Positions 1-5,453 of a stretch of DNA of 5,453 nucleotides are shown here, in pieces. Source of the stretch: Fidelibacterota bacterium (GTDB lineage Bacteria; Fidelibacterota; Marinisomatia; Marinisomatales; UBA2128); assembly GCA_046861645.1 (NCBI GenBank), contig JBHHUM010000116.1:1-5453 (forward strand). Direction: 5' to 3'. How positions within the stretch are numbered: position 1 is the stretch's first letter; the number at the start of each line of letters is the position of its first letter. The notes below the pieces were generated by a model. That model did not search any database, was not told the origin of the DNA, and saw only the letters and a program-made list of their open reading frames with translations. The translations under genes were made by a program, and so were the position numbers.

Positions 1-24
1 AACTCCTAAAAGTACCTTTTTCAT
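1..24 (-). CDS. 5' end of a probable exported protein (MKKVLLGV...), truncated by the window edge
   Basis: The minus strand reads ATG AAA AAG GTA CTT TTA GGA GTT from 24 to 1, a typical MKK + hydrophobic signal-peptide start, preceded by purine-rich GGGAAAAAAG. Only 8 codons are visible. Confidence 0.55.
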
Positions 25-125: not shown

Positions 126-953
126 TCATTTTAATAATATAACTTTTTCTGTTTGTCTCTGTGATGGAGATTCCAAAACAACAAAATAGATGCCTGAAGA
201 TAGCCCTTCAGCATTCCAAATTAACTGATGATATCCAGCAGGAACTTTTTCTCGCTTTCTAAGAATAGTTAATTGAGCACCCAATAAGTCAAAAATTGAC
301 AATTCAACCACCGCGTTTATGGGAAGATAAAAAGATATCCTGGTTTGGTGGTTGAATGGATTAGGATAAGGTGAATTTAGTATTATTCTTTCAGGAACAA
401 TTGACTGCTTCTCTTCAAAGTTGACTCCAACTTCTGGTATTTCTCCCATTAATTCTTCAATTATGGCTATCATCTCATTCTCATTGAATCCGTAAGCTGA
501 ATGTCTTACAGTCATATTATGATCTAAAATAATATTGTGAGGCACATACGGTACTCCAAATAAATCCACAAGTGAGTAATCAGTATCATCTAACAGTGGA
601 TACGAGGGTCCAAAAGTTTCTGCCCAGTCACTGCAGTAATAGGGATAACCCCAATCAAATCCAATGCCAATAATTTGCAGTCCTTGGTCTTTAAATGATT
701 GAAAAATGGTTTCCGTAAACGGAGCCTCCGCCTGGCAATTAGTTCACCAGGAAGCAAAGAAAGTCAACCAGACTACATGGTAATTCCCTCCATTGAAATC
801 CCCAAAATAATCATACAAACTTATATCACCTTCGCCATTAGCACATATTGGAGCTACAAAATCCTCAACAATTTCCCCCACTCCGTAAGGTTGGGCCTTG
901 AGGGAAATAAGAGAAGCTATCATAATACTCAGGGAGAATACTCTTTTCAGCAT
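126..953 (-). CDS. Putative selenoprotein: signal peptide + thioredoxin-fold redoxin (AhpC/TSA/TlpA-like, UxxC) + C-terminal T9SS type A sorting domain; ~275 aa, Sec at codon 70 (TGA 744-746)
   Basis: ORFs 744..977 and 126..569 are in the same frame (746-569=177 nt). Reading through TGA 744-746 gives ...VVWLTFFASW-U-TNCQAEAPFTETIFQSFKDQGLQIIGIGFDWGYPYYCSDWAETFGPSYPLLDDTDYSLVDLFGVPYVPHNIILDHNMTVRHSAYGFNENEMIAIIEELM..., an uninterrupted redoxin fold (FxAxW-x-xx-C, GxxIIGI strand, YPLLxD, cis-Pro-like VP). The signal peptide MLKRVFSLSIMIASLISLKA|Q starts at ATG 953 (alternative TTG at 977). The C-terminal PYPNPFN...IFDLLG...WNAEGLSSGIYFVVL...KVILLK matches the T9SS CTD pattern. Confidence 0.88.
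717..733 (-). promoter_or_regulatory. Candidate bacterial SECIS element
   Basis: The mRNA after UGA reads ACUAAUUGCC-AGGCGGA-GGC-UCCGUUU. AGGCGGA pairs with UCCGUUU (7 bp including two G-U pairs) around a GGC loop that begins with G, with 17 nt between the UGA and the loop. This fits the bacterial SECIS model (hairpin just 3' of UGA, G at the start of the apical loop). Folded by eye only. Confidence 0.6.
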
Positions 954-1007
954 ATCGAAGTCTTTATTCGATTTCAAAGTCTTACTTGGGACAATTTAGA
1001 TCCATTT

Positions 1008-1037
1008 AATGTAAATAGTTTGTCGCCCTGCTGACAA
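1008..1037 (-). promoter_or_regulatory. Possible sigma70-like promoter for the selenoprotein gene, overlapping an inverted repeat
   Basis: Minus strand: TTGTCA (1037-1032), 18-nt spacer, TACATT (1013-1008). The inverted repeat TTTGTC/GACAAA (1019-1024/1033-1038) overlaps the -35 box. These are weak matches in AT-rich DNA. Confidence 0.25.
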
Positions 1038-1061
1038 AAGGAGATATAGCTAATACTCATT

Positions 1062-2975
1062 TCAGAAACTACTGGTAAGAGTAATCGTCAGAGCATCTTC
1101 AATACCGGGTACGTAAACACAAACTCCACTATCACATTTAAGTCCACCCTGGAGAGATCCATAAAAAACACTAAAAATAGTTGCTGGTGTCAGATATATA
1201 GAACCTTGAATACCAAACCACTTATTGGTCATGTTTACACCTGAATTTCTCAGAATTTTCTCCAACCAACTGTCATTGTCGGGATTGGTATTTTGTGGAG
1301 TTCCTGCTTTAACAGCTGAAGCATAATCATAAACAAATCCAGCAGTATATTTTGAGGGTTTGCTAAAAGTTAAAGCCATATAACGATAATAATAAGGAAC
1401 AGATAAAGTTTCATCAGTAGTAATACTGTCAATTTCTCCGGAAGATAAATTTCTATATACCAGATAATTTCTATCCTGATAATCTTCCCACTGATGTTCC
1501 CAGTATAGTGTCATACCCCATCCGGAAGGGAGGTTAAAAGAAAGTTGAGTAGGTAGTGTAAATAATTTTCTTTTTTTCCAATCCAATTGTTCCAGAGTAT
1601 GATCTTCCCAATAGGATAGTTCACGTATACTTTCTTCGTACTTCTCTACCATATCACTGGAGTTAGCAAGCATGACTCTAAGGTCAAGGTTAAGTGGTGA
1701 GTAGTGGTAATTTATTTCACCATATAATTCCATGAATGGGTAGAAACCTTCATCATCAGAAAACCAAAATAACGACTTGGTTTCGATTTTATCCCACCCG
1801 TCAAAACCGTCGATATAACGGATATCCCGAAAACCGGTATGCCGACTGCTTTGAGCGTAGTTGAATGTTAGAAAAAGATTTTCAGACACGTTCAGATTAA
1901 ATTCAACCTGAATACCTACTTCATCTCCGAAATCCATAACGTGTGGAGTTCTACCCAAAAGTGTTGAGCTATGTTCTTTGAATGCAGTTGGACCATTCAT
2001 GGTGGGAGTTAACCGCCCTAATCGATAAGGTAAATGTGAACGGATATCAGGTTGGCTAATGTCAAAGTAGTAATTTTTATAGTCTAATGTTAATCCCCAA
2101 TTCCCTGAATAATATGATAAACTGGCATACCCTCCCCATCCTGAACTTTTACGATCATAGTAAAGCCACTCGAAAAGTGGAGTGGAATAAAGACTGTCAG
2201 CATCATCAATTTCCAGAGACCTTTTTAATACTTCGATATAGAAATCAACATCTGCTCCAAAGTATTCGATAAACAAGCCGGGTGAAAACGTACGAGTATG
2301 TATTGACATAGAATCAATCGTTGTAACAGTACCGTCCAAACTTTGCATCTTCCCAAACCAGGGATTAGTCGCATCGATATCTACACCATAAAAACCTGCT
2401 GAAAGACTGGGTAAGATATCATTAACCGTTAACAAAAGGACATTTACCATAGAATTTTCAGAAAAATCTCTAATTCTGGGATCCACACCTGGTCCTTGAG
2501 GAAGATGTCTCCCTCCAGTCGTTTTTCCACTAATGATATCAAAAGTCAGTTTATTCTTAGGTTGAGCCGTGAGCCAAATACCTCGTAAAGTTGAATCCCA
2601 GTCTATACCTTGATTCTCCCACATGTTTAAAGCCAGCCCCCGGCCAATCAGTCCGTAGAGATCACCAGCATTTACTGACAAATAATCACTCTCCCAAGTT
2701 AACCGCAACTTGCGGAGACCCAGATGATCCGGTCCGATCTGAGGCGGAGAGCTGAACTCAAAGTTCGACCAAAGCGTGAAGTTACTGTACCCAGCTGTTA
2801 CATCGAGCAAATGCTCACGATAGACGTATGACCCCCGGATCGTGTCACCTATTTCAATTGGCGGCTGAAGCCCACTGCCGTATTGAGCGGTTAGTCCGGC
2901 TGAGAAGTAAGCTCCCTGTCCATAGATCAAAGAAATAAAAATAAGAATTGGGGTAAGTCGTTTTATGGGAAGCAC
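1062..2975 (-). CDS. DUF6029-like outer-membrane beta-barrel protein with C-terminal CxxGxC motif
   Basis: 637-aa ORF with GTG start and signal peptide (MLPIKRLTPILIFISLIYG|Q). It has many amphipathic aromatic-rich beta-strands, the motifs AGDLYGLIGRGLAL...DSTLRG, LDYKNY and DEVGIQVE, and the C-terminus FYGSLQGGLKCDSGVCVYVPG...LTLTSSF-type ending in Phe (BAM signal). These resemble DUF6029 as I recall it; the family was assigned from memory, not by a search. Confidence 0.75.
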   Translation of the reverse strand: MLPIKRLTPILIFISLIYGQGAYFSAGLTAQYGSGLQPPIEIGDTIRGSYVYREHLLDVTAGYSNFTLWSNFEFSSPPQIGPDHLGLRKLRLTWESDYLSVNAGDLYGLIGRGLALNMWENQGIDWDSTLRGIWLTAQPKNKLTFDIISGKTTGGRHLPQGPGVDPRIRDFSENSMVNVLLLTVNDILPSLSAGFYGVDIDATNPWFGKMQSLDGTVTTIDSMSIHTRTFSPGLFIEYFGADVDFYIEVLKRSLEIDDADSLYSTPLFEWLYYDRKSSGWGGYASLSYYSGNWGLTLDYKNYYFDISQPDIRSHLPYRLGRLTPTMNGPTAFKEHSSTLLGRTPHVMDFGDEVGIQVEFNLNVSENLFLTFNYAQSSRHTGFRDIRYIDGFDGWDKIETKSLFWFSDDEGFYPFMELYGEINYHYSPLNLDLRVMLANSSDMVEKYEESIRELSYWEDHTLEQLDWKKRKLFTLPTQLSFNLPSGWGMTLYWEHQWEDYQDRNYLVYRNLSSGEIDSITTDETLSVPYYYRYMALTFSKPSKYTAGFVYDYASAVKAGTPQNTNPDNDSWLEKILRNSGVNMTNKWFGIQGSIYLTPATIFSVFYGSLQGGLKCDSGVCVYVPGIEDALTITLTSSF

Positions 2976-2990
2976 AATTAGGTTGAATAT

Positions 2991-3488
2991 TTACTGCGAT
3001 CCCTCTTGGGGAGACAGGATTGACAGTATCTCAGTTTCGAGGATTTTCTCATCTCCCGGCACATATCCTGAATGGCGATAGACAATATTTCCAGCGCCAT
3101 CTACCAGCAACGTGAAAGGCATCGTTGCACCGTTAAGCCGGCGATAGCTTTCCTGACTTGGATCGAGAGCCACTGTAAATCCATATCCTTTGGATCGAAT
3201 GTAGCTTCGGACTTTGGATCGACTGCGTTCAGTGTCAAGATTAATACCCAAAACTGTGAATCCCTGATCGCTGTATTTTTTCTGAAGGTCGTCAAGGTGC
3301 CTCATGGCTTTAATACACGGTGCACACCAGAGTGCCCAGAAATCAATCAATACTGGCCCAGACTTAATTATTTCCTGAACTGTGGTTTCAGTACCGTCAG
3401 TCAGTTTTAGATTTATTGCAGGAATCTGATCCGTTTGTGCTATCAGAAAATTTGATATCAGGCTGGCAAGTACAATCAGTCTAATCAA
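2991..3488 (-). CDS. TlpA-family thiol-disulfide oxidoreductase (exported, CxxC)
   Basis: 165 aa with signal peptide MIRLIVLASLISNFLIA|Q. It contains GPVLIDFWALWCAPC (W-C-A-P-C at 3315-3329), GFTVLGINLD, VALDP and MPFTLLVDGAGNIVYRHSGY, the hallmarks of TlpA/ResA/AhpC-TSA proteins. The TTG start overlaps the upstream TGA stop (TTGA, 3485-3488). Confidence 0.9.
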   Translation of the reverse strand: MIRLIVLASLISNFLIAQTDQIPAINLKLTDGTETTVQEIIKSGPVLIDFWALWCAPCIKAMRHLDDLQKKYSDQGFTVLGINLDTERSRSKVRSYIRSKGYGFTVALDPSQESYRRLNGATMPFTLLVDGAGNIVYRHSGYVPGDEKILETEILSILSPQEGSQ

Positions 3489-4810
3489 AGTAATTTCCCT
3501 AAGAAGCTCTCCAATTCAGATTCCGGAATAAATTCTATTAACACTTTTGTATAGTCAACTGCCTCATGTCTGGAGAGTGAGATCATGTATTCTGCATTGA
3601 TTTCTACGGTTTCCATTGTCACCTGAAGAGAGTTTCCACTGGCAGTGAAAGCTATTAGCGGAGAGAATTGATGTTCTGTCAGGAAGCGGACATTTGAGGA
3701 GGTTCTTCGATACCACGACGGTTCTGAAGTCTCCAGAATAATTGTCCGCGCACGACCCTCCTTATCCATCAACTGAATAACCGGAACAATCCGGAAATCT
3801 CCCCGGCTGATACGCTCGATCAAGGCGTGAGGTATACGCATCTCCCTCCGGGAAAATTGAAGCGAAATGAGAGACCCATCCTGGCGCATTGCCGAATACG
3901 GAAGGGATGACAGCATATCCTTGATGACGTTTTCACGAAGTGAATATTTCACGGACAAAGCAAACAGTACGGTCCCATCGTTTTCGCTGGGAACATGTAG
4001 AGACGGCCGGCTAATATCTACAATATAAGGATTGCTGGAGACGGTATTGATAATTTCTTCCAGCATAACAGCGTCTTTTGTAGGAACATCTTCGACTATT
4101 CCACCCGGTGAGAAGGAAAACTCCCTGCTGAAGGTACTCCCTTCAGAAACGGTCGGATCTAACTCATCCCTGCTGCCGATATAGAGGTCCATCACCTTCT
4201 CCAAATCTTCCACTGCTGTCTCAAGAGAGAAATTTAATTCCTTGGCTTGCTGACGATATTCAGGAATGGGAGCTTTGGCATCAGGCGACTTGAGAATACC
4301 CCGGGCATCCGGTTGAGGTATTTCACCCTCGAGAGCTATTTTCATTCGGAGGACGAGATCTTCGCCCAGTTTAGAGACCTGGTTCAGACTTCCTCTGGTC
4401 ACAAAACTTCCCAGCTCCACCCAGTTAGCGATATTAATTAATTGAATATTTACTGTCAGTTGATCCAATTCCCGAGTGAAGCTGCCCATGACAAGAATAC
4501 TCCGGGTACCCGACGGCTGACTCAGCAGCAACGAGCGATCCTGAAGTATCCGCTCCAGAGCTACCCGGTCATGCACACGAACGCCATCCACATCCTGAAA
4601 TCCGGTTGAAACCATATCCACCAGTCCTCTGCTCAGCCACGATACAGTTTCATCATTTCTAATGTTATCGAAATCCAGGAGATAGAGTTTCAGCCGCTTG
4701 GCGCCGTACAGGTCTGCAGCTCCAACAGTTGCAATGAGGGCTATCAGGAGATAAATACGCACTGTTTGTGGAATTCGCATGAAGCAGAATGTATCAGTGC
4801 GACGGCTCAT
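3485..4810 (-). CDS. Exported hypothetical protein with N-terminal TolB-N/CsgG/FlgO-like domain and unrecognised C-terminal region
   Basis: 441-aa ORF (alternative ATG at 4780, MRIPQ...) with a hydrophobic signal segment IYLLIALIATVGAA. The segment LLDFDNIRNDETVSWLSRGLVDMVSTGF...VRVHDRVALERILQ...ILVMGSFTRELDQLTVNIQLINIAN matches the TolB-N/CsgG-like alpha/beta pattern. Confidence 0.7.
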   Translation of the reverse strand: MSRRTDTFCFMRIPQTVRIYLLIALIATVGAADLYGAKRLKLYLLDFDNIRNDETVSWLSRGLVDMVSTGFQDVDGVRVHDRVALERILQDRSLLLSQPSGTRSILVMGSFTRELDQLTVNIQLINIANWVELGSFVTRGSLNQVSKLGEDLVLRMKIALEGEIPQPDARGILKSPDAKAPIPEYRQQAKELNFSLETAVEDLEKVMDLYIGSRDELDPTVSEGSTFSREFSFSPGGIVEDVPTKDAVMLEEIINTVSSNPYIVDISRPSLHVPSENDGTVLFALSVKYSLRENVIKDMLSSLPYSAMRQDGSLISLQFSRREMRIPHALIERISRGDFRIVPVIQLMDKEGRARTIILETSEPSWYRRTSSNVRFLTEHQFSPLIAFTASGNSLQVTMETVEINAEYMISLSRHEAVDYTKVLIEFIPESELESFLGKLL

Positions 4811-4856: not shown

Positions 4857-5453
4857 TTAGCCGGATTTTTCAATCTTCGCCCACGTATCCCGGAGAGTAA
4901 CCGTCCGATTGAAAACAGGGTTCCCTTCCCTGGAATCCACTGGATCCACATAGAAGTAACCAACACGTTCAAATTGATAATGTTCACCCGGCTTGGCATC
5001 ACTGAGACTCGGCTCAAGTTTGGAGTCCTTTAAGATTTCGAGGGAATCAGGATTGATATCAGCTTTGAAGTCATCGCCTCCGCTTCCTGGTTTTGGGGAA
5101 CGAAACAGACGATCGTAAAGTCGAATTTCCTGACTGACTGCATGCTGAGCAGAAACCCAATGGATGGTACCCCGTACCTTCCGTCCATCAGGAGCAGAAC
5201 CTCCCTTTGTTTTTGGATCGTAAGTGCAGCGAAGTTCTATTATCTCTCCGGAAGAGTCCTTTACAACTTCATCACATTTCAGGAAATAAGCATAGCGCAA
5301 ACGAACCTCTCGACCTGGAGTCAATCGAAAGAATTTCTTTGGTGGATCCTCTCGAAAATCATTTCTCTCAATGAATAATTCCCGGCTGAAGGGAACCTTT
5401 CGCTTTCCTGCTGATTCATCTTCGGGATTGTTAATGGCATCCAATTCCTCACC
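4857..5453 (-). CDS. glnS: Glutaminyl-tRNA synthetase, C-terminal anticodon-binding domain (5' truncated by the window)
   Basis: The frame stays open to the window edge ([12 protein letters not shown]...). GlnRS motifs are present: [80 protein letters not shown]. It ends with tandem TAA TAA and has no appended YqeY domain. Confidence 0.97.

Follow-up and report, generated by a model that had tools for sequence, protein, structure and literature searches.

To our knowledge, reducing power is carried to the bacterial periplasm via DsbD and crosses the outer membrane only via haem or flavin systems. The DsbD/CcdA pathways known to us end at periplasmic targets (such as apocytochromes, Sco and CoxB), and we know of none with a dedicated outer-membrane barrel. 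Large barrels do serve other systems: MtrB of the haem-based MtrCAB system has 26 strands, and LptD, which holds a protein plug, is also disulfide-dependent. The window analysed here is the whole of contig C143 (5453 nucleotides) from a genome of 2.5 Mb in 184 contigs (94.47% complete). It carries three consecutive genes that encode a TlpA-like redoxin, an outer-membrane β-barrel of the DUF6029 family and a redoxin that very likely contains selenocysteine (Sec, U). By the names of close homologues of the barrel and of p441, a further protein of the window, the source organism belongs to the Marinimicrobia (SAR406, Fidelibacterota) and not to the Bacteroidota, the setting mentioned in the original prediction on this DNA. 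We propose, at slightly less than even odds, that the three proteins form an envelope thiol/selenol relay from TlpA via the barrel to a surface redoxin.

Gene order around the DUF6029 barrel

The three genes and the features within them are:

3488..2991, minus strand: TlpA-like redoxin, 165 residues, TTG start (Pfam Redoxin, 77.5 bits)
3329..3315, minus strand: WCAPC active site of the TlpA-like redoxin, residues 54-58, read from the sequence
2975..1062, minus strand: DUF6029 outer-membrane β-barrel, 637 residues (PF19494, 56.5 bits)
1136..1119, minus strand: CDSGVC, residues 614-619, with C614 and C619 as the sole cysteines of the barrel
977..126, minus strand: predicted ResA-like selenoprotein redoxin with a type IX secretion system (T9SS) type A C-terminal sorting domain (CTD), 283 residues; open reading frames (ORFs) 744..977 and 126..569 joined through a TGA
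746..744, minus strand: the in-frame TGA, very likely U78 of WUTNC, from a comparison of TGA and Cys codons and from the Sec machinery
733..717, minus strand: hairpin resembling a selenocysteine insertion sequence (SECIS), with 7 base pairs and a GGC loop, beginning 11 nucleotides past the UGA
368..138, minus strand: T9SS C-terminal sorting domain, residues 204-280 (PF18962, Por_Secre_tail, E 1.5e-9)

The three co-oriented genes with CAPC, CDSGVC and UTNC motifs on which the original prediction was built are all found at these positions, and the gap of 15 nucleotides that it gave between the TlpA stop and the barrel start is exact. Signal peptides were assigned by eye from hydrophobic N-termini.

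The position of TlpA beside the barrel is strongly conserved. TlpA lies immediately 5' of the barrel in all 14 Marinimicrobia loci, which were taken from species genomes, although L024 retains just the last 32 TlpA residues at the locus edge. Twelve of the Marinimicrobia loci have at least 1 kb of downstream sequence, and in 7 of them the next gene after the barrel is a redoxin homologue. We also analysed 80 metagenome loci from one distant barrel subfamily, five members of which share 24-28% identity with the window barrel; the synteny counts for these loci describe that subfamily only. Among the 66 metagenome loci with at least 600 nucleotides upstream, 62 have a TlpA-like ORF immediately 5' of the barrel (strict rule; hidden Markov model E 1e-32 to 1e-52). 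The rule fails in four loci: in L058 and L115 an adjoining TlpA is present with excess ORF overlap, and L065 and L105 are cut barrels without real upstream DNA.

Downstream of the metagenome barrels, a Pfam scan covered 57 of the 104 candidate ORFs, each being the first ORF past its barrel. The first gene belongs to the Omp28 family in 51 of the 57 loci, and 17 of these proteins carry a T9SS sorting domain. The other six genes encode RNase E/G (L064), CcmB (L075 and L108), a protein with a CTD only (L110) and two proteins without a match (L103 and L123); these last two share the same CIPC and a lipoprotein-like SCESND start. All 51 Omp28-like proteins have a CxxC close to the start of the domain. 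They occur in two forms, either with a signal peptide and a T9SS sorting domain or as a lipoprotein starting with SCESND. The acidic stretch past the lipid Cys in the SCESND form resembles what we take to be the lipoprotein surface-export signal of Bacteroidota. The CcmB genes (cytochrome c maturation) that replace the Omp28-like gene are located at L075:4032-4700 and L108:5669-6331.

The synteny that the original prediction put forward as a check is seen on both sides of the barrel, in both sets of loci, and the tie to Omp28-like and T9SS cargo genes that it had mentioned was observed in the metagenome loci. Since the TGA position, the Cys pair of the barrel and the gene order are all kept in relatives, the three-gene pattern goes beyond chance. 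As far as can be read from sequence, the general module seems to have three parts: TlpA in the periplasm, the barrel, and an exported protein with CxxC or UxxC, which would be either T9SS cargo or a lipoprotein.

Besides its Redoxin match, the TlpA-like protein of the window matches AhpC-TSA with 66.3 bits. It has two Cys in total, which together with W54 form the WCAPC core, and W54, C55 and C58 are unchanged across 49 DUF6029-linked TlpA sequences. Outside the active site, D85, S89, K92, V93, D109, G120, G145 and D146 are invariant in this 49-sequence alignment. The best match in the PDB is 3gl3 and the second is 2m72 (E 3.4e-19), with DsbE, ResA and TlpA as the top structures. Because the protein scores 60.5 bits with NF047696 (Bradyrhizobium TlpA equivalog), below the cut-off of 230, we name it TlpA-like and not a TlpA ortholog. 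It is presumably exported to the periplasm and reduced there by DsbD.

The genome encodes a possible donor. A DsbD of 640 residues with three domains (DsbD_N, DsbD_TM and thioredoxin) is located on contig C146 (L037:973-2892), in agreement with the upstream source of electrons (dsbD or ccdA) that had been suggested for this locus. On the same contig, 3' of DsbD, a TlpA-like reading frame is found at C146:3497-3844, and the two may be a housekeeping reductant pair. A DsbA-like gene and VKOR are present as well; DsbB was not found in this 94.47% complete genome. With DsbD, the DsbA-like protein and VKOR all present, the periplasm therefore probably has both oxidising and reducing branches.

The barrel, its cysteine pair and the predicted complex with TlpA

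The PF19494 match of the barrel lies above the cut-off of 27 bits but covers only profile positions 60-159 of 538. A six-frame search with the same profile gave 33.5 bits, and PF19494 was found in all listed barrel homologues. The DUF6029 family comprises 629 representative clusters at E ≤ 0.001. Within the phylum it was detected in 101 of 201 sampled genomes, or 86 of 141 high-quality ones, and two taxonomic families of the phylum are without it (0/33 and 0/30 sampled genomes).

The AlphaFold2 (AF2) model of the barrel, built on a 19-sequence alignment, has about 26 strands and a mean predicted local distance difference test score (pLDDT) of 76. The C-terminal residue is aromatic (F). Outer-membrane proteins usually have both termini in the periplasm and an aromatic last residue, and by this rule the side of the tight turns would face the periplasm. 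The most strongly conserved motifs of the barrel (PPxIGP, WENQxIDWD, GPGxDPRxRD, EHSxxLxxRxxH and KCDSGVC) are all placed in long loops opposite the tight turns, and model confidence in these loops is low. C614 and C619 are placed across a short hairpin that joins the last two strands. Neither cysteine varies among 19 close sequences or among 48 diverse ones. Among the best 150 matches, 96 of the 98 full-length representatives (at least 480 residues) have a C-x(3-6)-C in the tail, and the two that do not are also without the usual terminal strand at their end. The Cys pair is a hallmark of the DUF6029 family. The derived C-terminal hallmark, a GGxxCxxGxC hairpin ahead of the last strand, is present in the window barrel.

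Fold comparison of the barrel model gave matches to generic large barrels and assigned it to no family. VIA ranked two usher pores highest, FimD (Z 17.5) and PapC (Z 17.1), and Wzi matched with Z 15.4 over residues 23-480. Foldseek returned OprC with a template modelling (TM) score of 0.40, MtrB with a TM score of 0.36, and AlgE. LptD was not among the fold matches listed for the model, which does not exclude families that were not listed. When the PDB was searched with a profile of the barrel alignment, all matches were at chance level, and no solved relative was found by sequence.

For the complex prediction we used barrel residues 21-637 with a 48-row alignment and TlpA residues 18-165 with a 49-row alignment. 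The interaction prediction score from aligned errors (ipSAE) was 0.83, 0.81 and 0.83 for barrel plus TlpA, versus 0.00, 0.02 and 0.00 for the controls. The runs gave 152-157 contacts with at least 94% contact agreement and a partner pLDDT of at least 83. In a calibration, solved complexes attained the mark for this score in 116 of 157 cases and mismatched pairs in 2 of 215, a comparison that is only approximate with user-made alignments. No solved complex of this type is known to us, and it seems unlikely that the model passed by having seen one before.

The barrel contacts include all periplasmic turns (residues 23-29, 58-69, 239-246, 285-296, 358-368, 424-433, 477-489, 536-544, 596-600 and 634-637). 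In addition there are contacts in the in-folded loops (107-113, 119 and 328-336) and at S616, which forms the tip of the hairpin with the Cys pair. Contact residues of TlpA include W54 and A56 of WCAPC, F125 beside the cis-proline, and K92, G120, G145 and D146, which are invariant in the subfamily. Because the contacts cover the entire periplasmic rim, TlpA is predicted to sit within the barrel lumen. The contact lists further suggest that its active site faces the Cys hairpin. Modelling of the barrel together with TlpA was a check put forward in the original prediction, and the complex scores well above the controls; the position of TlpA inside the lumen had not been foreseen.

The predicted selenocysteine redoxin and the other genes of the window

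With the TGA read as U, the redoxin frame has 283 residues with WUTNC at residues 77-81; the true start is probably the ATG at 953. The match to AhpC-TSA runs across the TGA (residues 33-159, E 7.3e-13). At the homologous position, 7 genes from 5 loci carry TGA; L027 has TGT there and L028 has TGC. Over the 7 distinct Sec sequences, 98% of the cells of the SECIS-like hairpin are paired, which none of 500 shuffles equalled. Two pairs show compensatory change, with a covariation of 0.401 (1/500). One pair reads G-U, U-A, G-C and C-G, and the encoded residues therefore change together. The Cys orthologs keep only 3/7 and 4/7 of the hairpin pairs. Folded by itself, the stretch of the window that follows the UGA was no better than shuffles (z 0.08).

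The genome contains the genes for Sec incorporation. A tRNA-Sec was detected with 63.9 bits (gathering score 47), and ARAGORN found a tRNA-SeC as well. The genes selB (395.2 bits), selA (531.1 bits) and selD (389.7 bits) are all above their cut-offs. The selD gene at C34:25008-25934 has an in-frame TGA of its own, and a short second selD-like match with a TGA is located at C34:32445-32582. Codon comparison, hairpin and machinery together indicate that the TGA of the window redoxin very likely encodes selenocysteine.

Sequence comparison places the redoxin nearer to ResA-type thiol-disulfide reductants than to peroxidases. A second Cys pair, C45 and C115, is kept in 8 of 9 homologues; the two residues probably form a structural disulfide, as would fit an extracytoplasmic site. 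The sorting domain at its C-terminus scores 40.4 bits with TIGR04183 (cut-off 23) and 38.5 bits with PF18962 (cut-off 27), so that the CTD first noted on the UTNC protein is borne out by two profiles. The genome also encodes the T9SS translocon SprA (609.8 bits, cut-off 200), and the sorting-domain part of the redoxin has 80 matches over 50 other contigs of the genome.

Every gene of the window lies on the minus strand. The genes other than the three above are:

5453..4857, minus strand: 3' end of a glutaminyl-tRNA synthetase gene (Pfam)
4810..3485, minus strand: p441, exported, 441 residues, without a Pfam or NCBIfam family
1..24, minus strand: truncated further gene, starting MKKVLLGV and interrupted by the contig end

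On contig C138 a reading frame that opens mid-gene (5755..4219) encodes a second Sec redoxin (W-TGA-PSC) followed by Asp-rich repeats of a thrombospondin-3/dockerin-like calcium-binding type and a T9SS sorting domain. The gene that starts at position 24 of the window probably continues there, in which case contigs C143 and C138 adjoin. The order of redoxin 1 followed by redoxin 2 is also found in L023.

The stop of p441 and the TTG start of TlpA overlap by 4 nucleotides, and p441 is translationally coupled to TlpA. It precedes TlpA in 7 of the 14 Marinimicrobia loci. Its 46 homologue matches are all Marinimicrobia-type sequences. The N-domain (residues 40-160) has a fold that resembles TolB-N, PelC, CsgG and GNA1162 (Foldseek E in the 1e-4 range; AF2 pLDDT 73.8), and these are periplasmic proteins located beneath the outer membrane. 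Beyond the N-domain follow a long helix and an alpha/beta C-domain. A promoter/terminator scan of the window was not above shuffles (13 vs 12.1; 6 vs 4.8), so the operon reading rests on co-orientation, short gaps and the 4-nucleotide overlap. An operon of p441, TlpA, the DUF6029 barrel and the Sec redoxin with its CTD, continued by another Sec redoxin on the following contig, is the best explanation of the window.

A proposed thiol/selenol relay and its alternatives

In the proposed relay, DsbD would reduce the periplasmic TlpA, which would then dock in the lumen of the ~26-strand barrel, similar to the plug in LptD or MtrA in MtrB. Once docked, its CAPC would adjoin the conserved in-folded loops, including the Cx4C hairpin. 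The CAPC could exchange with this hairpin, which would act as a shuttle arm, or directly with the surface partner through the pore. The T9SS-displayed Sec or Cys redoxin at the surface would in this way stay reduced and act on an extracellular substrate, with selenocysteine as the attacking residue. The substrate might be a peroxide, or a disulfide of an extracellular protein or peptide. Sec would suit a reductase that has to be recycled in oxidising seawater. A more specific version is a thiol conduit over the outer membrane, in which DsbD-reduced TlpA enters the barrel and the Cx4C hairpin swings outward to recycle Sec/Cys redoxins, whether T9SS-displayed or surface lipoproteins; we regard this version as possible but doubtful. 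Gene order, conservation, selenoprotein status and the predicted complex were computed, and electron transfer is the part that we infer. The original prediction of a route from TlpA via the barrel cysteines to the surface selenoprotein is supported in part. It agrees with the family-wide pair (96/98), the synteny, the presence of DsbD and the complex, but the pair is placed in the last extracellular or in-folded loop and not at the periplasmic face.

Several observations weigh against a relay. The complex score is the model's own confidence, obtained with unpaired alignments, and neither Cys-Cys nor Cys-Sec distances can be read from the complex model. Conservation at the barrel interface is slightly higher than elsewhere (0.42 vs 0.35, p 0.007), a difference confounded by lumen-facing positions, and the TlpA interface does not differ from the rest of TlpA (0.44 vs 0.43, p 0.28). 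In the monomer model the hairpin with the Cys pair has a pLDDT below 50, and a static disulfide would have the same geometry, a Cx4C that spans a hairpin. With just one CxxC, a plug is unable to touch DsbD and an outer partner simultaneously, so the relay would need docking cycles. The redoxin has no place beside the barrel in 5 of the 12 Marinimicrobia loci (L026, L031, L032, L033 and L034), and CTD cargo is possibly released instead of retained by the cell. Lastly, CcmB 3' of the barrel in 2 of 57 loci hints at a link to cytochrome c in some lineages.

The hairpin geometry is also part of an alternative in which the module serves assembly or quality control. TlpA would then be a dedicated barrel partner or LptE-like plug that handles the barrel disulfide, or the Cys/Sec sites of the redoxin, during passage through the periplasm. 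The Cys pair would be structural, no electrons would cross the membrane, and the barrel would anchor or export the third protein. This explanation is in line with the oxidising pathway of DsbA and VKOR, with a predicted complex that is compatible with a stable plug, with plugged usher pores as the best fold matches of the barrel and with the CTD-less lipoprotein forms of the third protein, which require a surface route. It leaves unexplained why every third component has a redox-active CxxC or UxxC (51/51 and 9/9) and why Sec is used, and a reductant is an odd helper for making a structural disulfide; we consider it unlikely. Redoxins predicted on either side of a large barrel with conserved motifs in its lumen loops, in a genome with heavy selenium use, would also fit a substrate channel. 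Here the barrel would move a small thiol, disulfide, selenium compound or peptide, which the surface redoxin captures or opens and TlpA reduces at the pore mouth. The predicted position of TlpA fills the lumen, however, and Pfam and NCBIfam scans of the window gave no gene for the transport or metabolism of such a compound; we consider a channel quite improbable.

Two further explanations have very little in their favour. A HHpred likeness to DUF6029 was reported for some Wzi-barrel-like matches in PMC9603273, and a role as a polysaccharide-export porin follows from the suggestion made there. Wzi and AlgE are indeed among the fold matches of our barrel, but these matches are generic and the universal partner of the barrel is a thioredoxin-fold protein. 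Moreover, genes for outer-membrane polysaccharide export (OPX) proteins, Wzx/Wzy and glycosyltransferases were found neither in the window nor among the 57 first downstream metagenome genes scanned, and we judge this role highly improbable. It would be equally surprising if the three genes were chance neighbours, with a TlpA for the maturation of cytochrome c or copper centres, an unrelated porin and an ordinary secreted peroxidase-like enzyme. Periplasmic targets are usual for the TlpA family, and the CcmB genes in L075 and L108 point in the same direction. Chance does not account for adjacency in 14/14 and 62/66 loci at 21-28% barrel identity, nor for a complex score of 0.83 versus 0.02, and housekeeping could be covered by the five further TlpA-like matches in the genome.

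The families of the components are known, but the system that they form matches none described. In literature searches judged mostly by titles, we found no published characterisation of a TlpA-DUF6029-redoxin module, and the literature searched gave no thioredoxin-fold protein plugged into an outer-membrane barrel. If the proposed relay is true, it would give a function to DUF6029, with its 629 representative clusters and its presence in half of the sampled phylum genomes (101/201), and a powered cell-surface reductase activity to bacteria of the Fibrobacteres-Chlorobi-Bacteroidetes (FCB) group. It would also explain the active upkeep of surface thioredoxin-like proteins in oxidising surroundings and the expenditure of selenium on such proteins by marine bacteria.

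The Cx4C pair of the barrel can be compared, by analogy only, with the shuttle loop of Ero1, a eukaryotic flavoenzyme in which a Cx4C pair on a mobile loop passes a disulfide between two redox partners. For the redoxin, the closest described proteins are the Prx-like/Trx-like UxxC selenoproteins of marine origin (Zhang and Gladyshev 2008; PMC2398784), of which 'Prx-like 1' in Table 2 counts 225 sequences. As far as the portions of that paper available to us go, the likeness lies in a pfam00578-type domain with UxxC, Cys homologues and SECIS; the T9SS sorting domain and the barrel or TlpA context are not described in those portions, and the window redoxin is nearer to the ResA type. The pathways from DsbD/CcdA to TlpA, ResA and CcmG share with this locus an exported thioredoxin-fold reductant with W-CxxC, and the genome also encodes the DsbD with three domains. 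In LptD-LptE and in the FimD/PapC ushers a very large barrel holds a protein plug, as is predicted here. Their cargo is lipopolysaccharide or pili, they have no sequence likeness to the DUF6029 barrel, and the plug of our barrel would be a redox enzyme with a gene of its own. MtrCAB (PDB 6r2q) resembles the predicted architecture, as a periplasmic redox protein within a large barrel faces a redox protein at the surface. It is wired by haems, whereas thiols and selenols would do this work here, and MtrB is only a generic match to our barrel model. If true, the route by thiols and selenols would be an envelope machine of a new kind and the thiol counterpart of the haem-based MtrCAB.

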